Numbered from the stretch's first letter, positions 36,601-48,693 are shown. The stretch is 64,000 bases of DNA from Escherichia coli (GCF_044324875.1 NZ_CP172185.1), one strand, 5' to 3'. Notes: a model not told the origin generated them from the letters alone. Translations and numbers: made by a program.

Positions 36601-37147
36601 ATCCCTCCTGTCGCGAAAAATGGCCTGCGTTATTGCCAGACGTAATAAAACTTTTGATTAACGTTTCTCGTACTGGTAGCACCTTCATGTACTTTTCTTT
36701 TTTACGAAAAATCAAAAGAGCTAACAAAGGTCATAATTCGCATGAATCATTAATTATTTGTTATTTTCAACATTATTTTTACATTAAGCAGAGATGAATT
36801 GCAGTGAAATTCGACTTAACTTTTATGAAATGCATTTACTCATGGCTAAAGCCACGTCACAAAAATGCAAATTAGAAGTAGATCACAAATATCTCAATAC
36901 ATCAAATCAAGTTAATTTTAAAAATTTAATATTCATGACATTAGTTGACATAACACACTGAATTATAATGAGAATTTGAAAACACACTTTAAACAATCAT
37001 TTCCCGAAAGACATTTTGAAAATAGATCAATTGCAACATTACGGTCAGATAAAGACACTCCTGTGATATTAAACCTGTGCCGTTATGAACGGCCATAAAT
37101 ACGACGTGTGTAACTTATTTTACTCTCTGTCTTACAAAGGATTACCC

Positions 37148-37597
37148 ATGAAGAAAGCAACACTTGTGATTGGCGTTATTGGCGCGGACTGCCATGCAGT
37201 AGGCAATAAAGTTCTGGACCGCGTTTTTAGCAACCATGGCTTCAGAGTCATTAATCTGGGCGTAATGGTCAGCCAGGACGAATATATTGATGCTGCCATT
37301 GAAACTGGTGCTGACGCGATTGTCGTCTCCTCTATCTATGGGCATGGCGATATCGATTGTCTGGGCATGCGCGAACGCTGCATTGAGCGTGGGCTGGGTA
37401 ACATCCTGCTCTATGTGGGCGGTAACCTGGTGGTCGGAAAACATGACTTCGCTGACGTGGAAACCAAGTTCAAAGAGATGGGATTTGATCGCGTCTTTGC
37501 CCCAAGTCATGACTTAGAAGATGTTTGTCAGCTGATGGCCCACGATATCAACCAACGTCATGACGTTGATACTCGCATTCTTGAAGAGGCAATCTGA
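37148..37597 (+). CDS. glmS: Glutamate mutase (methylaspartate mutase) S subunit, B12-binding
   Basis: B12-binding motif (GADCHAVG) and strong resemblance to clostridial GlmS/MutS; start at the ATG at 37148 (149 aa). Confidence 0.85.
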
Positions 37598-38985
37598 TGC
37601 AAATCGTCTCTGTCGATATTGGATCGACGTGGACCAAAGCAGCCCTCTTCGCCCGGGAGGGGGACGCGTTAACGTTGGTTAACCACGTACTGACCCCAAC
37701 CACCACCCATCATCTGGCGAAGGGTTTTTTCTCCAGCCTGAACCTGGTGTTAAACGTAGATAATGCCCTCCCCCTGTTTAACAACGGTGAGGTTGCATTG
37801 AAGTATTCCTCCTCTGCCAAAGGTGGGCTGGCGGTTGCCGCAATGGGGTTGGTGCCATCTATCACCCTGGAAACCGCGAAAGTAACCGCTCACTCTGCGG
37901 GGGCTAAAATTGCGCAATATTACGCCTACAAGCTGAACCGCCGTGATATCCAGGCACTGGAAGAAACGCAGCCCGATATTCTCTTGTTCACCGGCGGCAC
38001 CGACGGCGGAGAAGAAAGCTACGGCCTGAATAACGCCCGTGTGCTGGCAGAATCCAAACTCGACTGCGCCATTATTTATGCCGGAAACCGGGATATTCAG
38101 GACGAGGTGCAGGAGATCCTAGGGCATAAAGACCTGACCATCGTCGACAACGTTCTGCCCGATCTTGACCATCCGAACCCTTTAGCTGCACGCCAGGCTA
38201 TCTGCGACATATTCCTTAAACGCATCGTTAAAGGGAAAGGGCTGGATGTCATTGTTGATAAAACAGGCGAAGAACCAATGCCGACACCATGGACGGTCTT
38301 TGAACTGGTTAAGGCAATCAGTAACGTCGATCACAGCTGGAAAGAGTTCATGCTGATCGACATGGGCGGCGCAACCACCGATGTCTATTCAGCCTGTGCC
38401 AACACGCTCTCGCCCGACACCGTTTTACACGGCGTACCGGAACCCTTCGTGAAACGGACGGTGGAAGGCGATCTGGGAATGCGCGTCTCGGCAATGGTGG
38501 TTGGTGAAAGTGCGAAAGAGTTAGTCAATGTGAATTTTGCTCAGCAACCCGCACAGCTGGACGCTTTTTATCATTACCTCCGTCATCTAGTCGCTCATCC
38601 CGACTACTTACCCGCGAATGTAGAAGAAAAATATTTCGATACCGTCCTGGCCGGACTGTGTGTGGGTTATGCCACCGAAAGACATGCGGGCACCAAAAAA
38701 GAGGTCTGCACCTGCGTCGGCAATGTCGATTTACAGATGGGACGTGACCTGACAACCGTGCGTAAAGTCGTCGGATCCGGCGGATGGCTCTCGCGTGCCA
38801 GTCAGTTCGATATGCATCACTGGTTGAAATACCGCGAGTTAAACGACGACGGTAAACGCATTCTCTTACCGACCGAATTTGAATATTACCGCGATTCCCG
38901 GGGGCTATTACCACTGCTGGCAAACGTCGCCAGAGTCGATCCGCTGGCCGCCGCGCGCACCAGTATTCAATGCTTAACCCTATAA
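37597..38985 (+). CDS. glmL: Glutamate mutase-associated protein L (MutL/GlmL)
   Basis: 462 aa; start overlaps the glmS stop (TGATG); position between S and E subunits as in clostridial operons. Confidence 0.75.
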   Translation: MQIVSVDIGSTWTKAALFAREGDALTLVNHVLTPTTTHHLAKGFFSSLNLVLNVDNALPLFNNGEVALKYSSSAKGGLAVAAMGLVPSITLETAKVTAHSAGAKIAQYYAYKLNRRDIQALEETQPDILLFTGGTDGGEESYGLNNARVLAESKLDCAIIYAGNRDIQDEVQEILGHKDLTIVDNVLPDLDHPNPLAARQAICDIFLKRIVKGKGLDVIVDKTGEEPMPTPWTVFELVKAISNVDHSWKEFMLIDMGGATTDVYSACANTLSPDTVLHGVPEPFVKRTVEGDLGMRVSAMVVGESAKELVNVNFAQQPAQLDAFYHYLRHLVAHPDYLPANVEEKYFDTVLAGLCVGYATERHAGTKKEVCTCVGNVDLQMGRDLTTVRKVVGSGGWLSRASQFDMHHWLKYRELNDDGKRILLPTEFEYYRDSRGLLPLLANVARVDPLAAARTSIQCLTL

Positions 38986-39003
38986 CAATTAAGGCTGCAA
39001 TCA

Positions 39004-40449
39004 ATGGAACTTCGAAATAAGAAATTAACCCATGACGAATTCATGACCGAGCGGCAACAGGTACTGAAAACCTGGGAAACCGGCAAGGATGTTGAAAACT
39101 TTGAAGATGGCGTTAAATACCAACAAACCATTCCTGAGCATAAACGCTTCTCTCTTGTGCTGTTGAAAGCAGACAAGGAAGGTAAAACCCTTAGCCAACC
39201 GCGCGCAGGTGTGGCGCTGATGGACGAACACATCGAACTACTGAAAACACTACAAGAAGAGTGCGATCTGCTGCCGAGCACTATCGATGCATATACCCGT
39301 CTGAATCGGTACGAAGAAGCGGCTGTAGGGATTAAAAAATCCATCGAAGCCGGAACCTCTAAACTGAACGGTTTACCGGTCGTTAACCACGGCGTCGCAG
39401 CTTGCCGTCGCCTCACCGAAACTTTGCAAAAACCGCTACAGATCCGCCACGGCACGCCAGATGCGCGTCTGCTGGCTGAAATCTCGATGTCCAGCGGCTT
39501 TACCAGTTATGAAGGCGGCGGCATTTCCTACAATATTCCGTATGCCAAGCGCGTAACGCTGGAAAAATCGATCCGCGACTGGCAGTACTGCGACCGTTTA
39601 ATGGGGATGTATGAAGAACACGGGATCCGCATCAACCGCGAACCGTTTGGCCCACTAACGGGTACGCTGATCCCGCCGTTTATCTCGCACTCTATCGCGA
39701 TAATCGAAGGCTTGCTGGCGCTGGAACAGGGTGTGAAATCTATCACCGTTGGTTATGGACAGGTCGGCAGCCTGACGCAGGATGTTGCGGCGATCCAGTC
39801 TCTGCGTGAACTTGCACACGAATATTTTCAGAGCTATGGCTATACCGACTATGAATTAAGTACCGTGTTTCACCAGTGGATGGGCGGCTTTCCGGAAGAC
39901 GAATCGAAAGCGTTCGCTATTATCTCCTGGGGCGCAGCCGTCGCGGGGATGTCTGGTGCCACCAAAGTCATCACCAAAAGTCCGCACGAAGCCTGGGGTA
40001 TCCCGACTGCCGCTGCCAACATTCAGGGGCTGAAAGCCTCCCGCCAGATGCTCAACATGGTCAACGAGCAGAAATTCCCGCCGTGCCCTGCGGTTGAACT
40101 GGAAATTGAACTGATTAAGAGCGAGGTTCGCGCGGTACTGAATAAAGTGTTCGAACTGGGTAATGGTGATATTGCGCGCGGTACGGTGCTGGCATTTGAA
40201 GCGGGCGTACTGGATGTGCCGTTTGCGCCAGCCGCCTGCAACGCGGGCAAAATTCTTCCGGTCCGTGACAACACCGGCGCGATACGCGTACTGGAAGCCG
40301 GAGCCGTTCCATTGCCAAAAGATATTCTCGACCTCCACCACGATTACGTTGCGGAACGCGCACGCTTTGAAGGACGCCAACCGACATTCCAGATGGTTGT
40401 AGATGACATCAATGCTGTATCCCACAGTAAATTAATAGGAAGACCATAA
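39004..40449 (+). CDS. glmE: Glutamate mutase (methylaspartate mutase) E subunit
   Basis: 481 aa; extended similarity to clostridial GlmE (LPSTIDAYTR, GGGISYN, TVFHQWMGGFP, FQMVVDDI). Confidence 0.88.
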   Translation: MELRNKKLTHDEFMTERQQVLKTWETGKDVENFEDGVKYQQTIPEHKRFSLVLLKADKEGKTLSQPRAGVALMDEHIELLKTLQEECDLLPSTIDAYTRLNRYEEAAVGIKKSIEAGTSKLNGLPVVNHGVAACRRLTETLQKPLQIRHGTPDARLLAEISMSSGFTSYEGGGISYNIPYAKRVTLEKSIRDWQYCDRLMGMYEEHGIRINREPFGPLTGTLIPPFISHSIAIIEGLLALEQGVKSITVGYGQVGSLTQDVAAIQSLRELAHEYFQSYGYTDYELSTVFHQWMGGFPEDESKAFAIISWGAAVAGMSGATKVITKSPHEAWGIPTAAANIQGLKASRQMLNMVNEQKFPPCPAVELEIELIKSEVRAVLNKVFELGNGDIARGTVLAFEAGVLDVPFAPAACNAGKILPVRDNTGAIRVLEAGAVPLPKDILDLHHDYVAERARFEGRQPTFQMVVDDINAVSHSKLIGRP

Positions 40450-41690
40450 TGAAAATAAAACAGGCTCTGTTCACCGCTGGCTACTCCTCATTCTATTTCG
40501 ATGACCAGCAGGCGATAAAAAACGGAGCGGGTCACGACGGTTTTTTTTATACCGGGGAGCCGGTAACACAGGGGTTTAACGCCGTTCGTCAGGCCGGGGA
40601 GTGCGTATCGGTACAGTTGATTCTGGAAAACGGCGCGGTCGCCGTAGGTGACTGTGCTGCCGTACAGTATTCCGGGGCAGGTGGTCGCGATCCACTGTTC
40701 CTCGCAGAGCACTTTATTCCGTTCCTCAACGACCATATCAAGCCATTACTGGTAGGCCGCGATGTGGATGCTTTCCTGCCGAATGCCCGTTTCTTCGACA
40801 AATTGCGTATTGACGGCAACTTGCTGCATACCGCCGTGCGCTACGGATTATCACAGGCGCTGCTTGATGCTACCGCGCTGGCAACCGGCCGTCTGAAAAC
40901 TGAAGTGGTCTGTGATGAATGGCAGTTGCCACGCGTGGCGGAATCCATTCCATTATTTGGTCAGAGCGGCGACGATCGATATATCGCCGTCGATAAGATG
41001 ATCCTTAAGGGCATCGACGTGCTGCCCCATGCGCTGATTAATAACGTCGAAGAGAAGCTGGGCTTTAAAGGTGAAAAACTGCGCGAATATGTCCGCTGGC
41101 TGTCGGATCGTATTCTGAGCAAGCGCACCAGCGCACGCTACCACCCTACCCTGCACATCGATGTATACGGCACTATCGGTCTGATCTTCGATATGGATCC
41201 GCTTCGCTGTGCGCAATACATCGCCAGCCTGGAAAAAGAAGCGCAAGGCCTGCCGCTCTACATTGAAGGGCCGGTCGATGCTGGTAACAAGCCCGATCAA
41301 ATTCGCCTGCTGACCGCGATTACCAAAGAGCTGACACGCCTCGGTTCCGGCGTGAAAATTGTGGCCGATGAATGGTGTAACACCTACCAGGATATTGTTG
41401 ATTTCACAGATGCCGCCAGTTGCCACATGGTGCAAATCAAAACCCCGGATCTGGGCAGTATTCACAACATCGTCGATGCAGTTCTTTATTGCAACAGCCA
41501 CAGCATGGAAGCGTACCAGGGCGGCACCTGCAATGAAACTGATGTCAGTGCCCGCACCTGTGTCCACGTCGCCCTTGCCGCTCGCCCCATGCGTATGCTG
41601 GTAAAACCAGGGATGGGCTTTGACGAAGGCCTCGATATCGTCTTCAACGAAATGAATCGTACTATCGCGCTGTTGCAGGCTAAGGATTAA
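40449..41690 (+). CDS. mal: 3-methylaspartate ammonia-lyase
   Basis: 413 aa, enolase-superfamily-like; start overlaps the glmE stop (TAATG); typical MAL length. Confidence 0.8.
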   Translation: MKIKQALFTAGYSSFYFDDQQAIKNGAGHDGFFYTGEPVTQGFNAVRQAGECVSVQLILENGAVAVGDCAAVQYSGAGGRDPLFLAEHFIPFLNDHIKPLLVGRDVDAFLPNARFFDKLRIDGNLLHTAVRYGLSQALLDATALATGRLKTEVVCDEWQLPRVAESIPLFGQSGDDRYIAVDKMILKGIDVLPHALINNVEEKLGFKGEKLREYVRWLSDRILSKRTSARYHPTLHIDVYGTIGLIFDMDPLRCAQYIASLEKEAQGLPLYIEGPVDAGNKPDQIRLLTAITKELTRLGSGVKIVADEWCNTYQDIVDFTDAASCHMVQIKTPDLGSIHNIVDAVLYCNSHSMEAYQGGTCNETDVSARTCVHVALAARPMRMLVKPGMGFDEGLDIVFNEMNRTIALLQAKD

Positions 41691-41693
41691 CAA

Positions 41694-43064
41694 ATGGCTC
41701 GTTCTTTTAAAGTCTTATCGCCAACGGCAATCCTCGGGTATGGATTCCCGGAAGAGAGCTTCCGTAAAGCGATGGCAGAATCGCCCGATCTGATCGCCGT
41801 TGATGCAGGCTCTTCCGATCCAGGCCCCCACTACCTCGGGGCAGGCAAACCGTTTACCGATCGCGCAGGGGTCAAGCGCGATCTGCGCTATATGATCACC
41901 GCAGGCGTGCAAAATAATATACCGGTGGTGATCGGAACGGCTGGCGGTTCTGGTGCCGCACCACACCTGGAGTGGTGCCGAGAAATAATTCATGAGATTG
42001 CCCGGGAAGAGCAACTCGCGTTCTCGATGGCGCTGATCCCGGCAGACGTTGACAAAGCCATCGTCCACCAGGCGCTGGATAACGGCAAAATCACGGCGCT
42101 GGATTTTGTCCCGCCGTTAACCCACGACGCGATTGACGAAAGTACGTATATCGTCGCGCAAATGGGCATCGAACCCTTCCAGCGGGCGCTGAAAGAAGGC
42201 GCGCAAGTGGTGCTGGGCGGGCGCGCTTACGACCCGGCCTGCTTTGCTGCGCTACCGATCATGCAAGGCTTTGATGAAGGTCTGGCGCTGCATTGTGGGA
42301 AAATCCTTGAATGCGCGGCAATCGCCGCAACGCCCGGCTCAGGCTCTGACTGTGCGATGGGCATCATTGATGACAACGGCTTTACGCTGAAGACATTTAA
42401 TCCGAAGCGTAAATTTACCGAAACGTCAGCGGCTGCACACACACTGTATGAGAAATCCGATCCCTACTTCCTGCCTGGACCTGGCGGCGTGTTGAACCTG
42501 AAAGGCTGCACATTTAAAGCGGTCAATGACGGCGAAGTGTACGTCAGCGGTTCTAAGTATGAAGAAACGCCGTATTCCCTGAAACTGGAAGGTGCGCGAC
42601 GGGTGGGCTTCCGCTGTCTGACCATCGCAGGAACGCGCGACCCGATCATGATCGCCGGGATCGATAAAATCATTGATGAAGTCAAAACCAGCGTTTCGCG
42701 TAACCTGTCGCTCGACGATGACAGTATTCACATCAATTTCCACCTGTACGGCAAAAACGGGGTGATGGGCGACCATGAACCGATGCAAACTGCCGGGCAT
42801 GAGCTGGGGATTGTCCTTGATGTAGTTGCACCGACCCAGGAAATTGCCAATAGCGTTTGCTCGCTGGTGCGCTCTACCATGCTGCACTACGGCTATGAAA
42901 ACCGCATCGCTACCGCAGGTAATCTGGCGTTCCCGTTCTCCCCTTCTGATATCCAGGGCGGGCCGGTATACGAATTTTCCATATATCACCTGATTGAAGC
43001 CAACGACGCTCTGCGTTTTGATTTCCATATTGAACAGGTGACGCCAGAAGGAGTTCAGGCATGA
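41694..43064 (+). CDS. Conserved protein of unknown function, resembling the DUF1446 (AtuA-like) family
   Basis: 456-aa ORF starting 4 nt after the mal stop; family assignment from memory, not searched. Confidence 0.6.
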   Translation: MARSFKVLSPTAILGYGFPEESFRKAMAESPDLIAVDAGSSDPGPHYLGAGKPFTDRAGVKRDLRYMITAGVQNNIPVVIGTAGGSGAAPHLEWCREIIHEIAREEQLAFSMALIPADVDKAIVHQALDNGKITALDFVPPLTHDAIDESTYIVAQMGIEPFQRALKEGAQVVLGGRAYDPACFAALPIMQGFDEGLALHCGKILECAAIAATPGSGSDCAMGIIDDNGFTLKTFNPKRKFTETSAAAHTLYEKSDPYFLPGPGGVLNLKGCTFKAVNDGEVYVSGSKYEETPYSLKLEGARRVGFRCLTIAGTRDPIMIAGIDKIIDEVKTSVSRNLSLDDDSIHINFHLYGKNGVMGDHEPMQTAGHELGIVLDVVAPTQEIANSVCSLVRSTMLHYGYENRIATAGNLAFPFSPSDIQGGPVYEFSIYHLIEANDALRFDFHIEQVTPEGVQA

Positions 43065-43378
43065 AACAGTCAATTGTCTCACTGGCGCAAGTCATTCGTT
43101 CGAAAAATGCCGGACCTTACGAACTGGTTTTAGATATTTTATTTAAAACCAAAGAAAACTATGAGCGAGTTAAATCATCAGGGCAATTAACCCCAGAACT
43201 GATTGCGCGCTTATATCATGTTGAACCTGACTTTATTCATCGTATTGTCTGGTTTGATCCTTCTAACGCAGTAAAAATCGTCATGCCACGAGATATTATC
43301 TCCGGGAATGTAGGTGACAATGATGTCTATGGTGCACAGCAACATGCACCTTTATTAAATATGAGTTTCGATTTGTAA
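43061..43378 (+). CDS. Small conserved protein of unknown function (105 aa), likely the DUF4387-type partner
   Basis: ATGA overlap with the preceding gene; size and pairing typical of DUF1446/DUF4387 gene pairs as I recall them. Confidence 0.55.
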   Translation: MKQSIVSLAQVIRSKNAGPYELVLDILFKTKENYERVKSSGQLTPELIARLYHVEPDFIHRIVWFDPSNAVKIVMPRDIISGNVGDNDVYGAQQHAPLLNMSFDL

Positions 43379-43461
43379 AAATCCGAATACTTTTAGCCAA
43401 CTGACATCCCGTCACTTATTGCAGTTCAACACTTCAGCTATTTGTAAGGTTGTAATAGCAG

Positions 43462-43493
43462 GTAGATGCCTGAATCTCTATTCAGACATCTAC
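43462..43493 (+). terminator. Strong hairpin (gtagatg-ctgaat…attcag-catctac) with partial U-tract, between the DUF pair and the transporter
   Basis: 13-bp stem with one mismatch followed by ttctcctgattctgattt; seen directly. Confidence 0.45.
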
Positions 43494-43538
43494 TTCTCCT
43501 GATTCTGATTTATCGCCGTGCACCTGATGGAGGAAAAA

Positions 43539-44819
43539 ATGAAGAAAATAAGTTTAACCACGATGATTCTTTTGGCACTGGTACTTGGAATGATTATCGG
43601 CGTAGTGCTCAATAACACTGCTTCACCGGAAACCGCAAAACTCTATGCGCAAGAAATATCGATATTCACGACGATTTTCTTACGACTGATAAAAATGATT
43701 ATCGCTCCGTTAGTGGTCTCTACCCTGGTGGTAGGTATAGCTAAAATGGGCGATGCCAAAGCCCTTGGTCGTATTTTTTCTAAAACACTCTTTTTATTTA
43801 TTTGCGCCTCATTGCTGTCAATTGCCTTAGGCTTGATAACAGTAAATTTCTTCATGCCAGGCACAGGAATTAATTTTGTTGCACACGGAGCCGAAACCAC
43901 CGGAGTGGTCGCGTCAGAACCCTTTACGCTAAAAGTATTTATTTCGCATGCTTTCCCCACCAGCATTGTCGATGCCATGGCGCACAATGAAATTTTGCAA
44001 ATCGTAGTGTTCTCAATTTTCCTCGGCTGTAGCCTGACGGCGATTGGCGAGAAAGGCAGCGCCATCGTTCACGCCTTAGATTCGCTGGCACATGCCATGT
44101 TAAAGCTCACTGGCTACGTCATGCTCTTCGCTCCCCTGACCGTATTCGCCGCTATTTCAGCATTGATTGCTGAACGAGGACTGGCAGTTATGGTGAGCGC
44201 CGGGATCTTTATGGGTGAATTTTATTTCACCATGTTGTTACTTTGGGTGCTGCTTATCGGTCTGGCCATCGTTTATGTCGGCCCCTGCATCAGACGCCTG
44301 ACCCGCGCCCTTTCGGAACCCGCTCTGCTGGCATTTACCACATCCAGTTCTGAAGCGGCTTTTCCGGGAACGCTTGAAAAACTGGAGCAATTTGGCGTTT
44401 CCCCCAAAATTGCCAGCTTTGTCTTACCCATTGGCTACTCATTTAATCTCGTTGGATCAATGGCCTACTGCTCCTTCGCCACAGTTTTCATCGCCCAGGC
44501 CTGCAATATCCATTTATCCATCGGTGAGCAAATCACCATGCTGTTGATCCTGATGTTGACCTCGAAAGGAATGGCTGGCGTACCACGCGCCTCAATGGTG
44601 GTTATCGCCGCCACGCTCAACCAGTTCAATATTCCGGAAGCGGGGCTGATCTTGCTGATGGGCGTTGATCCGTTCCTTGATATGGGGCGTTCCGCGACAA
44701 ACGTCATGAGCAACGCAATGGGCGCTGCGATGGTGAGTCGGTGGGAAGGCGAACATTTCGGCGAGGGTTGTCGGGGTAAAGCATTAAAACCCAATGAATC
44801 GAACGTTGCTCTGCCCTGA
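43539..44819 (+). CDS. Dicarboxylate/amino-acid:cation symporter (GltP/DctA-like)
   Basis: Polytopic membrane protein with DAACS-like motifs; GGAGG RBS before the ATG at 43539 (426 aa). Confidence 0.8.
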   Translation: MKKISLTTMILLALVLGMIIGVVLNNTASPETAKLYAQEISIFTTIFLRLIKMIIAPLVVSTLVVGIAKMGDAKALGRIFSKTLFLFICASLLSIALGLITVNFFMPGTGINFVAHGAETTGVVASEPFTLKVFISHAFPTSIVDAMAHNEILQIVVFSIFLGCSLTAIGEKGSAIVHALDSLAHAMLKLTGYVMLFAPLTVFAAISALIAERGLAVMVSAGIFMGEFYFTMLLLWVLLIGLAIVYVGPCIRRLTRALSEPALLAFTTSSSEAAFPGTLEKLEQFGVSPKIASFVLPIGYSFNLVGSMAYCSFATVFIAQACNIHLSIGEQITMLLILMLTSKGMAGVPRASMVVIAATLNQFNIPEAGLILLMGVDPFLDMGRSATNVMSNAMGAAMVSRWEGEHFGEGCRGKALKPNESNVALP

Positions 44820-44926
44820 GGGGGATCTTAAGCAATCAGAAGCCAATGACTACGCATTTTTATAAGCCGGATCATGAAGTTAGACGGCAATTAAGTAACA
44901 CTAACGTTTAAGGTGAAAAGTGAAAT

Positions 44927-46579
44927 ATGTCCAAACCATTTATCTGGCAAGAACCGTTTCTACAAAATAAAGACGGTACAGAATATACATTAATTAGCGA
45001 TCAACATATTACAGTAACGGAATTAGACGGCGAAGAAGTGATAAAAATCGCTCCTGAAGCATTAACGCTGCTTGCCCGGCAGGCATTTTATGAAGCCTCT
45101 TTTTTCTTACGTTCCGCTCATTTGCAACAGGTCGCCAGCATTCTTAACGATCCGCAGGCCAGTAGTAATGATAAATACGTTGCGTTGCAGTTATTACGTA
45201 ATGCTGAAGTCTCAGCAAAAGGGGTATTACCCAACTGTCAGGATACCGGCACCGCAACTATTGTTGCCAGTAAAGGGCAACAGATATGGACGGGAGGTAA
45301 CGACGCTGAAGCCTTAAGCAAAGGCATTTACAGTACTTTCCAGGAAAATAATCTGCGCTTTTCACAAAATGCGCCGCTGGATATGTATACCGAAGTCAAT
45401 ACGCAAACCAATCTCCCGGCGCAGATTGATATCAGCGCTGTCGCTGGTAATGAGTACCATTTTCTCTGTGTTAATAAAGGGGGCGGCTCCGCCAATAAAG
45501 CCGCACTTTATCAGGAAACCAAATCCTTATTGCAACCAGAAAAACTGACCGCATTTTTAATCGAAAAAATGAAATCGCTGGGCACCGCTGCCTGCCCGCC
45601 TTACCACATCGCCTTTGTCGTCGGAGGGCTTTCAGCCGATCAAACCTTAAAAGTTGCCAAGCTGGCCTCTACGAAATATTACGACAATTTGCCCACCAGC
45701 GGAAACGAGCAGGGACAAGCATTCCGTGATATTGAGCTGGAAAAAGTGTTGCTCGAGGTCAGTCAGCAATTTGGTATTGGTGCGCAATTTGGGGGTAAAT
45801 ATTTCGCTCATGATATTCGCGTCATTCGTCTGCCGCGTCACGGTGGCTCTTGCCCGATAGCTATGACGCTCTCCTGTTCTGCCGATCGCAATATCAAAGC
45901 AAAAATTAACAAGCACGGTATCTGGCTGGAAAAACTCGAACACAATCCGGGGCAATATATTCCAGCCTCACTGCGGGAAGAAAATCACGCGCAACATGTA
46001 CAACTGGATCTAAACCGTCCGTTGCGTGACGTGATGCAGGATCTCGCCAGATTACCGGTAGGCACCCGCGTGTCGTTAAGTGGTCCCATCGTAGTGGCAC
46101 GCGATATCGCCCACGCCAAAATAAAAGCGCGGCTGGATAACGCCGAACCGATGCCGGATTACCTGAAGCATCATATTGTCTATTACGCTGGCCCGGCGAA
46201 AACACCGGAGAACATGGCCTGCGGTTCACTGGGTCCAACCACGGGCGGTCGAATGGACGGTTATGTCGATACCTTCCAGGCGGCTGGCGGCAGTCTGGTG
46301 ATGTTATCGAAAGGTAACCGCAGCCAGCAGGTCACCGATGCCTGTCACAAACATGGTGGCTTCAATCTGGGTAGTATTGGCGGTGCAGCTGCGTTACTGG
46401 CGCAAGAATATGTCAAAAGTCTGCGTTGCCTGGAATACCCGGAGCTGGGTATGGAAGCGGTGTGGATGATGGAAGTGGAAAATCTGCCCGCATTCATCCT
46501 GGTAGATGATAAAGGCAATAATTTCTTTAGTCAGTTTGAGCAGCAACACCGCTGCGCCAGTTGCCCTGCGGGACATTAA
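44927..46579 (+). CDS. fumD: Class I (Fe-S) fumarate hydratase paralogue; FumD-type mesaconase/fumarase
   Basis: 550 aa, alignable by eye with FumA along the whole length; clustering with glutamate mutase and methylaspartase matches published FumD. Confidence 0.8.
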
Positions 46580-46588
46580 GGAAAATGA

Positions 46589-47191
46589 ATGGAAGCGCGA
46601 ATTTCAACTGAACGGCATGTGCAGCGCCAGCAGAAATTGAAGGAACAGGTCGATACGCGCATCGCGGCGGCGATAGAGAAAAAAGGGATTTTGATTGTTT
46701 TCACCGGCAATGGCAAAGGGAAATCCACTGCCGCGTTTGGTACTGTGACGCGCGCGGTGGGTCATGGCAAAACGGTGGGGGTTGCGCAGTACATCAAGGG
46801 GCAATGGGACAACGGCGAATACAACCTTCTCCAGCCGCTGGGGGTTGAGTTTCATATTATGGGAACCGGTTTTACCTGGGAGACACAGAACCGGCAAGCG
46901 GATATCGACGCGGCGAAAGAGGTCTGGTCGGAAAGCAAACGGATGCTGGCTGACAAGCGTTACGACTTAGTGGTGCTTGATGAGCTGACCTATATGCTGG
47001 CTTACCATTATCTGGATACCGAAGAAGTGATCGCTTCTCTGCAAAACCGCCCGGCACAACAAAGTGTCATTGTCACCGGACGCGGTTGCCACAGTCAGAT
47101 ATTAAAAATGGCGGATACGGTCAGCGAAATCCGCCCCGTCAAACATGCTTTTGATAACGGCATTCAGGCCCAGCCGGGTATCGACTGGTAA
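46589..47191 (+). CDS. Cob(I)alamin/cob(I)yrinic acid a,c-diamide adenosyltransferase paralogue (BtuR/CobO-like)
   Basis: 200 aa; P-loop (GNGKGKSTAAFG) and close resemblance to E. coli BtuR. Confidence 0.85.
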   Translation: MEARISTERHVQRQQKLKEQVDTRIAAAIEKKGILIVFTGNGKGKSTAAFGTVTRAVGHGKTVGVAQYIKGQWDNGEYNLLQPLGVEFHIMGTGFTWETQNRQADIDAAKEVWSESKRMLADKRYDLVVLDELTYMLAYHYLDTEEVIASLQNRPAQQSVIVTGRGCHSQILKMADTVSEIRPVKHAFDNGIQAQPGIDW

Positions 47192-47194
47192 TAA

Positions 47195-47221
47195 CTGCGC
47201 CTGGCATCCCGCCAGGCGCAG
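47195..47221. terminator. Bidirectional hairpin (ctgcgcctggc…gccaggcgcag) between convergent cobO-like and LysR genes
   Basis: 11-bp perfect stem followed by gtttta; seen directly. Confidence 0.6.
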
Positions 47222-47224
47222 GTT

Positions 47225-48130
47225 TTACATCTCCTGCGGTACAACCGATTTCGCCAGCAACCATTCACGAAATTGCTGCAAGTGCGGTGAGTCAGACTTC
47301 TCTTCCTGCCACGTCATAATAAAACGATTACCGGTACGAATAGGCACATCACAGGGGATCACCATATCGCCACTATCCAAATCATGTTGAATAGCGAAAC
47401 GTGGTAACAGCGCCACGCCGAGATTAGAGCGCACGGCGGCAATCAGCATTGAAAGCAAATCGAAACGTGGTCCGTTGTTGACCAGCGGACTGCTAACGCC
47501 AGATAAGGCAAACCACTCTTCCCAGCCAGTAATACGGGTACTTTGATGCAGAAGTGGTAACTCTGTAAGCAGTTCTGCCACTGACAGTTTTTGATCGGAC
47601 ATTGCAAGCAAACTGCCGCTGCATACCGGCAAAATCTCCTCATCAAAGAGATATTCTACTTCCGCCCAGGGCGCGCAAAAATTTTCGCGCATAATGACAG
47701 CATCGTACTCCCGATTAAGAAAATCGCCGTTATTAGCTAAAGAGTGAATATTAACAATAATATCGGGATGTAACTTTGTGAATTCATGTAAATTTGGGAT
47801 TAACCAGTGGGTACTAAACGTAGGATTCACGGCAAGTTCAATAACCTGAACCGTAGGCTGCCAGGTCATAATGGTATTGGTATCGCGTTCCAGCTTATTT
47901 AATGTTTCTTTTACTATCCCCAGGTAATACTTCCCTGCATCATTAAGAAAAATACGTTTTTTAGAGTGTGAAAATAACGGAGTATGTAAAAATTCCTCCA
48001 GCGCACTCACTTGTCTGAATACTGCACTTTGGGTCAACGCTAACTCCTCTGCCGCTTTGGTATAACTTTCATGACGTGCGACGACCTCAAAAGTCACCAG
48101 CAGCTCCGTTTTAGGTATTTTTCCTCGCAT
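47225..48130 (-). CDS. LysR-family transcriptional regulator
   Basis: 301 aa; N-terminal HTH (YTKAAEELALTQSAVFRQVSALEE). Confidence 0.85.
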   Translation of the reverse strand: MRGKIPKTELLVTFEVVARHESYTKAAEELALTQSAVFRQVSALEEFLHTPLFSHSKKRIFLNDAGKYYLGIVKETLNKLERDTNTIMTWQPTVQVIELAVNPTFSTHWLIPNLHEFTKLHPDIIVNIHSLANNGDFLNREYDAVIMRENFCAPWAEVEYLFDEEILPVCSGSLLAMSDQKLSVAELLTELPLLHQSTRITGWEEWFALSGVSSPLVNNGPRFDLLSMLIAAVRSNLGVALLPRFAIQHDLDSGDMVIPCDVPIRTGNRFIMTWQEEKSDSPHLQQFREWLLAKSVVPQEM

Positions 48131-48169
48131 AATGCCGTCCCTTAAAAATAGTTTAAACCATCAAAAATA

Positions 48170-48191
48170 CATTACTTATTACGAAGTAATG
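48170..48191. promoter_or_regulatory. Perfect 22-bp palindrome CATTACTTATTACGAAGTAATG upstream of the LysR gene
   Basis: 8-bp inverted arms around a 6-bp spacer, 40-60 bp upstream of the start codon. Confidence 0.45.
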
Positions 48192-48693
48192 GTAACCAAA
48201 GCAGCAATAAATAATTTATAAGAATCATGATTGACATTTATAACCCAGTAAGCCTGGCGTGACAAATATCTTAATCAGATAATAATAATCCGAAAAGCAC
48301 AGCGCCTTTCGAATTATCCGGAATCACATTAAGTGAAAATTATTAAATTGATATCATTTATCATATCTGTGGATATTATGATAAACAATCAACAAAGATT
48401 TTATTTTTGATTTATAGCATATCCCTCTAAGAATTTTTGCGATGCTGCAATATCCGGGGTAAAGACCCGATCCTGGCTGACAAATGGCACGACTTGACGA
48501 TAAGCGGTGAACATCGCTTTTGTTGATTTACTTAACGCTACGGTCAAACGCTGGGAAGCCAGTGCATCAGGTAACGATTCGAAATTCGCCGTCGTTCTTA
48601 TTCGTGGCTTGCGGTCGGTTGCGGCAATCCACAGTGGCTGTGGTCATGCAGTCAAGCCAGCGGTCAGATTTCGACCGTGGTTAACATTTAAGG

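Follow-up and report, generated by a model that had tools for sequence, protein, structure and literature searches.

A methylaspartate-pathway gene block with a predicted two-subunit citramalate lyase on an accessory island of Escherichia coli

Results

Gene content of the locus

In a 64,000-nucleotide (nt) stretch of the Escherichia coli genome (NZ_CP172185.1, assembly GCF_044324875.1; hereafter the window), six genes on one strand, glmS, glmL, glmE, mal, cmlA and cmlB (Table 1), are predicted to encode the enzyme core for catabolizing glutamate by the methylaspartate (mesaconate) pathway. GlmS and GlmE would together form an adenosylcobalamin-dependent mutase that converts glutamate to 3-methylaspartate, with GlmL as the accessory protein that reactivates it; Mal would remove ammonia to give mesaconate, FumD, encoded downstream, would hydrate mesaconate to (S)-citramalate, and the DUF1446 and DUF4387 proteins CmlA and CmlB would cleave citramalate to pyruvate and acetate. 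The cluster forms an accessory island between cydAB and sucABCD on the E. coli chromosome, with cydA on one side and sucD on the other. The 10.6-kb stretch from 36600 to 47200 was present in 1135 of 5426 complete E. coli genomes (21%) at 95-99.5% identity, almost always as a single copy per genome, and all nine pathway open reading frames (ORFs) were intact and 98-100% identical to RefSeq proteins.

GlmS, GlmL, GlmE, Mal, FumD and CobA scored above the curated cutoffs of their NCBIfam equivalog models, and GlmE and Mal matched the clostridial structures 1CCW and 1KCZ. The assigned start codons are well supported: the NCBIfam profile alignments begin at residues 1-6 of each protein, the PDB chains of the two DUF proteins align from the first residue (1-456 for CmlA and 1-104 for CmlB), and RefSeq places the starts identically in a genome with 99.5% identity across the cluster. 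The gaps between successive genes of the block are -1, 18, -1, 3 and -4 nt, so that three overlaps and one 3-nt gap are found among its five junctions. The TGA of glmS (37595-37597) shares one nucleotide with the ATG of glmL at 37597 (TGATG), an 18-nt spacer lies between the end of glmL at 38985 and the start of glmE at 39004, the TAA of glmE overlaps the ATG of mal at 40449 (TAATG), three nucleotides separate the end of mal at 41690 from the start of cmlA at 41694, and the TGA of cmlA (43062-43064) overlaps the ATG of cmlB at 43061 (ATGA). The first-pass annotation, made from the DNA alone, had listed these five junctions, and the ORF map and junction sequences place every one of them where it had put them.

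Table 1. Positions in the window of the cluster genes and associated features, with the matches on which each assignment is based
Feature	Position	Strand	Assignment	Evidence
glmS	37148-37597	+	Methylaspartate (glutamate) mutase subunit S, B12-binding	NF002612, 252.7 bits (cutoff 110), residues 1-147; RefSeq agrees
glmL	37597-38985	+	Glutamate mutase accessory/reactivating protein	NF040745, 507 bits (cutoff 475); TIGR01319, 885 bits
glmE	39004-40449	+	Methylaspartate mutase subunit E	TIGR01503, 863.5 bits; PDB 6H9E/1CCW glutamate mutase epsilon, ~630 bits
mal	40449-41690	+	3-Methylaspartate ammonia-lyase	TIGR01502, 543.9 bits; PDB 1KKO, 898 bits over 1-413
cmlA	41694-43064	+	DUF1446, AtuA family; predicted citramalate lyase large subunit	PF07287; PDB 9ERQ/9EVF chain A
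cmlB	43061-43378	+	DUF4387; predicted citramalate lyase small subunit	PF14330; PDB 9ERQ/9EVF chain B
Spacer hairpin	43457-43497	+	Conserved RNA hairpin in the 160-nt cmlB-symporter spacer (43379-43538)	Free energy -16.6 kcal/mol
Symporter gene	43539-44819	+	Dicarboxylate/amino acid:cation symporter (GltP/DctA-like), presumed glutamate importer	NCBIfam GltP and DctA, below cutoffs; RefSeq agrees
fumD	44927-46579	+	Class I fumarase/mesaconase	NF011921, 1279.6 bits (cutoff 1060)
cobA/cobO	46589-47191	+	Cob(I)alamin adenosyltransferase, makes the adenosylcobalamin cofactor	NF004637, 296 bits; TIGR00708, 246.6 bits
Terminator	47195-47221	+	Strong intrinsic terminator hairpin, 3 nt past the cobA stop	11-bp stem, 9 G-C pairs, then GTTTTAC
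Upstream motif	37014-37034	+	21-nt motif TTTTGAAAATAGATCAATTGC, ~115 nt 5' of glmS; candidate operator/promoter element	Conservation; unique in the window
LysR gene	47225-48130	-	GcvA-like member of the LysR regulator family, convergent with the operon; candidate regulator	NF008352 at 221 bits (below cutoff); RefSeq agrees

As an operon the six genes are already known: the cluster was published in 2015 as glmS, glmL (mutL), glmE, mal, a DUF1446 gene, a GltP transporter gene, fumD, cobA and a LysR gene (Kronen & Berg, PLoS One, PMC4682846, Fig. 5), and the DUF pair has since been solved and named. The window carries the components of that cluster (both mutase subunits, GlmL, Mal, FumD, cobA, the LysR gene and DUF1446 3' of mal) in the same set and order and at a similar strain frequency (21% here, 26.5% of strains in PMC4682846). 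We see no substantive difference from the earlier description, in which DUF1446 was left unknown and the small DUF4387 gene was unmentioned. The same study characterized FumD of E. coli O157:H7 biochemically as a mesaconase and left the fate of citramalate open, no citramalate lyase having been found.

Comparison with the clostridial glutamate fermentation cluster (mutS/glmS-mutL/glmL-mutE/glmE-mal; PMC4682846) revealed that the first four genes and their order are shared, as is the pathway as far as citramalate. Clostridia, however, use a CitDEF-type acyl-carrier citramalate lyase (citDEF/citCXG) and a two-subunit mesaconase (mesAB), whereas here CmlAB would take the place of the lyase. In the haloarchaeal methylaspartate cycle, by contrast, mesaconate is activated to mesaconyl-CoA for acetate assimilation, with neither a mesaconase nor a citramalate lyase being used.

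Identity of the two DUF proteins

CmlA of the window (456 amino acids) carries the PF07287 domain (E = 6.4e-19) and CmlB (105 amino acids) the PF14330/DUF4387 domain. When compared with PDB entries 9ERQ and 9EVF, CmlA matched chain A with 966 bits over residues 1-456 at 91.4% identity, and CmlB matched chain B with 193 bits over residues 1-104. The molecule names given by the depositors are "Citramalate lyase, subunit A (cmlA)" and "Citramalate lyase, subunit B (cmlB)", and each subunit sequence occurs in four chains across both entries, that is, in equal chain numbers. The chain A sequence has 100% identity to the product of the syntenic Klebsiella michiganensis gene (locus L002), and in that species cmlAB likewise follow mal with the same -1/+3/-4 junctions. 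Furthermore, the enzyme of the Raoultella cmlAB genes (Cml) is reported to cleave citramalate directly to pyruvate and acetate, and Cml-dependent growth on mesaconate was described together with label flow into acetyl-CoA; the construct in that work carried cmlAB with one ribosome-binding site for each subunit (preprint, bioRxiv 10.64898/2026.01.16.699985). The two-subunit architecture of this citramalate lyase (9ERQ/9EVF; the enzyme of the I. Berg laboratory in the preprint) is that of the window pair, the crystallized and tested proteins being from the Klebsiella/Raoultella group and the E. coli orthologue being known here from its sequence.

Taken together, the PDB molecule names, the preprint and the genomic evidence strongly support the identification of the DUF1446 and DUF4387 proteins of the window as citramalate lyase subunits CmlA and CmlB. 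Such an assignment would complete the route from glutamate through methylaspartate, mesaconate and citramalate to pyruvate and acetate, closing the gap that was left in 2015.

The RefSeq names of the two genes at 41694-43378, 'acyclic terpene utilization AtuA family protein' and 'DUF4387 domain-containing protein', lag behind the PDB. CmlA does belong to the same Pfam family, PF07287, as AtuA of the Pseudomonas acyclic terpene utilization (atu) cluster, but none of the atu genes (geranyl-CoA carboxylase and others) is found near CmlA, whose neighbours are glm, mal, fumD and cobA. Given a context of glutamate mutase, Mal and mesaconase genes and a citramalate lyase as close orthologue, we take the AtuA name as a label of family and not of function, and the AtuA-family and DUF4387 products in this cluster should read CmlA and CmlB. 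In some database entries the DUF1446 protein is labelled '3-methylaspartate ammonia-lyase', an error that was noted already in PMC4682846. A Rosetta-stone fusion of the two DUF proteins was also considered; the best 120 homologues of each were all stand-alone proteins, and therefore we make no argument from fusion.

Conservation of gene order and junctions across taxa

A scan by CmlA alignment with one genome per species yielded 80 loci with CmlA identities of 57-91%, distributed over Enterobacterales, Betaproteobacteria, Riflebacteria, Aminicenantes/Acidobacteriota, Spirochaetes, Firmicutes, Lentisphaerae, Chloroflexi, Planctomycetes and others. The order glmS-glmL-glmE-mal-cmlA-cmlB was retained in almost all of them. 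cmlB followed cmlA in 79 of the 80 loci, the sole exception being a truncated contig, and mal lay within 300 nt 5' of cmlA in 71. The first-pass annotation had held that the DUF proteins are functional members of the pathway and not passengers, and this proposal is sustained by the 91% identity to the crystallized CmlA, the activity reported in the preprint and the mal-cmlA-cmlB adjacency in 71 of 80 species.

No homologue of CitC, CitD, CitE, CitF, CitX or CitG was found within 10 kb of the 80 cmlA loci or in locus L001 (blastp with K-12 queries, E <= 1e-5), and a CitDEF-type acyl-carrier lyase in the window cluster was set aside on this ground. Clostridial mal clusters, on the other hand, carry citDEF-type lyase genes (PMC4682846). 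This complementary distribution of the Cit-type lyase and CmlAB gives independent support for CmlAB as the supplier of the last step.

The junctions themselves are nearly unchanged (-1, 12-18, -1, +3, -4) in the Escherichia-Citrobacter-Klebsiella-Salmonella group. Across the wider set, the glmE-mal junction was -4 or -1 in 48 of 66 loci and the cmlA-cmlB junction in 42 of 79, and many Firmicutes and others have gaps of 10-30 nt at all junctions. Adjacency and order are thus strongly conserved and the exact overlaps only in part.

Tight junctions and translation of the block

The spacing of the glm block was compared with that of its chromosomal surroundings, where RefSeq annotates 37 further pairs of adjacent genes on a common strand. 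A gap of 3 nt or less was found in 10 of the 37, all of which lie within the known mod, gal, tol, cyd, suc and sdh operons: modC-modB (+2), modB-modA (-1), galT-galK (+3), galK-galM (-7), tolR-tolQ (+3), tolQ-ybgC (-4), ybgE-cydX (-1), sucD-sucC (-1), sdhA-sdhD (-1) and sdhD-sdhC (-7). Four of the five glm-block junctions are this tight, which is more than random same-strand neighbours would yield, and genes within E. coli operons are most often spaced at -4 or -1. Because all ten tight comparison pairs sit in known operons, the packing is a good but ordinary operon signature, and it says nothing beyond confirming the operon.

Each of the nine genes has its own Shine-Dalgarno (SD) sequence at normal spacing, with energies between -3.7 and -9.3 kcal/mol (glmE, -3.7; mal, -4.2; cmlB, -8.3; symporter, -9.3), and the unpaired probability of the start regions was 0.41-0.66, relative to a background mean of 0.41 at random operon positions. 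Since every gene has its own SD sequence and the start regions show no excess of structure over random positions, nothing forces a dependence on the upstream ribosome; none of the glm-block genes has a sequestered start or lacks an SD sequence of its own. Translational coupling within the six-gene block is plausible, and termination-reinitiation is possible, plausibly at glmE and mal with their weak SD sites. A fixed stoichiometry is meaningful only for GlmS:GlmE, whose genes are non-adjacent, and for CmlA:CmlB. The clostridial glutamate mutase is an E2S2 tetramer of GlmS and GlmE, GlmL has an accessory role, and Mal works as an enzyme in its own right. The idea that the packing brings about coupling and stoichiometric co-production, put forward in the first-pass annotation, therefore survives in part: the overlaps are present and coupling through them is plausible, but each gene has its own SD sequence, the start regions are open and the exact overlaps are not retained outside the Proteobacteria.

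These same measurements bear on an alternative to which we would give somewhat less than an even chance, namely that the overlaps are a neutral by-product of compaction, with deletion bias capturing start codons beside stops and the initiation rate of each gene setting the ratios. Such an origin would agree with the normally spaced SD sequence of each gene, with start regions as open as the background or more so, and with junction types that drift among taxa (from -1 to -4; from 3 to -1, 1 or 2; 10-30 nt in Firmicutes) and that recur in the nearby mod, gal, tol, cyd, suc and sdh operons; GlmL and Mal have no obvious need for a fixed ratio to their neighbours. It agrees less well with the retention of -4 or -1 at glmE-mal in 48 of 66 species and at cmlA-cmlB in 42 of 79 species from many phyla, suggesting some constraint at least for the CmlA:CmlB heteromer, and the weak SD sequences of glmE and mal mean that these genes may need re-initiation. 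In the account that we favour, the 1-4 nt overlaps would represent the usual compaction of operon junctions and would at the same time permit re-initiation by terminating ribosomes, beside initiation at each gene's own SD sequence.

Extent of the transcription unit

Past cmlB, the same strand carries the genes for the symporter (labelled GltP by Kronen & Berg, PMC4682846), FumD and CobA, preceded by gaps of 160, 107 and 9 nt, respectively. Within the six-gene block a consensus scan detected only weak matches (promoter-like at 41331 and terminator-like at 43005 and 43331; signals inside coding sequences can escape such scans), and the scan totals were close to those for shuffled sequence (20 promoter-like matches against 23.1 expected and 18 terminator-like matches against 16.8). 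The only strong terminator of the cluster is the hairpin after cobA (free energy -28.1 kcal/mol, z = -6.25), which none of 200 shuffled sequences equalled in folding.

The sequence supports co-transcription of the six genes as one unit, and this unit probably continues through the symporter gene, fumD and cobA to give nine genes. A nine-gene unit makes physiological sense because FumD would act between Mal and CmlAB. The single compact operon proposed in the first-pass annotation is accordingly supported by the common strand, gaps of 18 nt or less, internal signals at chance level in the consensus scan and a conserved gene order, but its boundary needs revision, as the six genes are probably not the whole unit.

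The 160-nt spacer between cmlB and the symporter gene is the feature that most directly bears on this extent. Homologous spacers were aligned from 17 enterobacterial sequences (loci L002-L016, L020 and L032), revealing two hairpins with compensatory changes on both sides of the stem at 6 of 9 and 11 of 15 pairs, the hairpin listed in Table 1 being the larger. In the alignment 93.6% of cells were paired, as against 28-43% when the partners were slid, and the observed level of covariation was reached by 0 of 500 shuffles. G-U pairs of the hairpins occur on the + strand, which suggests structure in the sense RNA. A stable hairpin follows soon 3' of cmlB in all enterobacterial genera examined; it is succeeded by a T-rich tail in Pseudescherichia, Enterobacter sp. 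ENT03 and Hafnia, and the large hairpin has no U-run in E. coli and the Citrobacter group. In the Citrobacter/Klebsiella group a block (ATTCATGCGGTTGGTCA) and a motif (CCCTACAC) flanking the hairpins are conserved as well.

An Rfam search of 34300-48500 at an E-value threshold of 1 gave no match, which argues against a B12 or other riboswitch and against a known small RNA. A dispersed repeat of the repetitive extragenic palindromic kind is disfavoured by the 10.6-kb query, which at megablast sensitivity hit a median of one place per genome. The larger hairpin may act as an attenuator, a processing site or a stabilizer. It is conceivable, though doubtful, that the spacer holds an undescribed cis-acting RNA element which, through attenuation, RNA processing or protection of the 3' end, sets a tightly coupled six-gene core apart from symporter, fumD and cobA genes that are tuned on their own; such an element might sense a pathway metabolite. 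If so, the six-gene block would be a true unit of regulation and more than the leading portion of a nine-gene operon.

A related proposal, which we likewise regard as rather unlikely, treats the six genes as a transcription unit of their own: the transcript would terminate or be processed at one or both hairpins after cmlB, and expression of the symporter gene, fumD and cobA would depend on a separate promoter or on regulated read-through, so that the enzymatic core and the transport and cofactor genes would be tuned separately. The length of the spacer relative to gaps of at most 18 nt within the block points in this direction, as do the covariation of both hairpins across Enterobacterales with their sense-strand G-U pairs and the recurrence of a post-cmlB hairpin in every enterobacterial genus examined, in some with a T-rich tail. 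The downstream part is also the variable one, with a glutaminase A gene inserted in most genera and with fumD and cobA absent from the examined flank in Yersinia, Hafnia, Budvicia and Morganella. Against a six-plus-three division stand the missing U-run after the large hairpin in E. coli and the Citrobacter group, the lack of any sigma-70-like promoter in the 160-nt and 107-nt spacers in the consensus scan, and the position of the sole strong terminator after cobA; moreover, FumD is required between Mal and CmlAB, and separate expression would break the pathway.

Upstream region and candidate regulator

The core of the 21-nt motif 5' of glmS (Table 1) is invariant in Escherichia, Citrobacter, Klebsiella, Salmonella, Lelliottia and Buttiauxella, and Yersinia, Hafnia, Budvicia and Morganella retain a partial form (ATATCAATTG). 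At the other end of the cluster, the LysR-family gene occupies the same place in Citrobacter (L007). The LysR protein may regulate the operon, with the motif as its candidate operator.

Control by FNR through this motif was rejected, as the motif does not match the FNR consensus at two mismatches or fewer. A perfect FNR consensus (TTGATTTATATCAA) lies at 34685-34698, 5' of cydA; it is the only zero-mismatch site in the 64-kb window and is presumably part of the cydAB promoter, with no role in the glm cluster.

Discussion

The explanation that we consider likely overall is that the locus is a methylaspartate-pathway core operon on an accessory island, with CmlAB catalysing the last step and with a nine-gene unit as its probable extent. 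Co-transcription would begin at an activator-dependent promoter in the 547-bp AT-rich region 5' of glmS, would read through the structured 160-nt spacer into the symporter gene, fumD and cobA, and would end at the post-cobA hairpin.

Several points weigh against this explanation. The covarying hairpin after cmlB could terminate or process the transcript, giving six plus three genes rather than nine. The consensus scan detected no sigma-70-like promoter in the 547-bp region, and no transcript or expression data for the cluster genes (including ECs0759-ECs0764 of strain Sakai) were found in the searched literature. In O157:H7, neither expression of the cluster nor Mal activity was seen under any of the tested conditions (PMC4682846), a lack of laboratory expression that an activator-dependent promoter would fit. 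The citramalate lyase assignment, for its part, leans on the names under which the PDB molecules were deposited and on a single preprint in which the enzyme was used.

Some of these observations could also be read as signs that the cluster is silent or decaying in E. coli and its operon layout a relic: the missing expression and Mal activity in O157:H7, the carriage by only 21% of complete genomes and the want of a recognizable sigma-70 promoter would all be expected. Such decay is nonetheless improbable given nine intact ORFs that are 98-100% identical to RefSeq proteins, a cluster identity of 95-99% maintained across 1117 genomes, and junctions and an upstream motif conserved between genera. 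Mal activity has, in addition, been measured in many enterobacteria by Kato & Asano, as cited by Kronen & Berg (PMC4682846). Clues to when enterobacteria turn on this B12-dependent pathway may lie in the conserved motif 5' of glmS, in the LysR gene and in the structured spacer.

Neighbouring genes and solitary cmlAB pairs

Two hypothetical ORFs on the + strand, at 35153-36097 (314 amino acids) and 36178-36600 (140 amino acids), lie between cydA and the glm operon in a stretch of 38% GC. They are annotated as hypothetical in RefSeq and have no match in Pfam, NCBIfam, PADLOC or PHROGs. In other phyla a P-loop gene (315 amino acids), absent from E. coli, is conserved 3' of cmlB; the possibility that the 314-amino-acid ORF is a divergent copy of it was discarded on an hhalign probability of 0.1%, and we regard both hypothetical ORFs as unrelated to that gene.

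Most Enterobacterales carry a glutaminase A gene (glsA) between the symporter gene and fumD (for example, L007:12823-13824, and at the same place in L002-L016, L020 and L023), and glsA is drawn in Fig. 5 of Kronen & Berg (PMC4682846). E. coli and Salmonella enterica subsp. arizonae are without it there and have a gap of only 107-117 nt.

Finally, cmlA-cmlB pairs without glm or mal neighbours were observed in L062, L073 and L077 (Shewanella), L030 (Accumulibacter), L065 (Desulfospira), L051 and L070. The genes around such solitary pairs are unrelated (HrpA, a protease and FadE; a resistance-nodulation-division (RND) efflux system and MalQ; a histidine kinase). Because cmlAB pairs occur without glm and mal, CmlAB may also serve citramalate or mesaconate metabolism outside glutamate fermentation.

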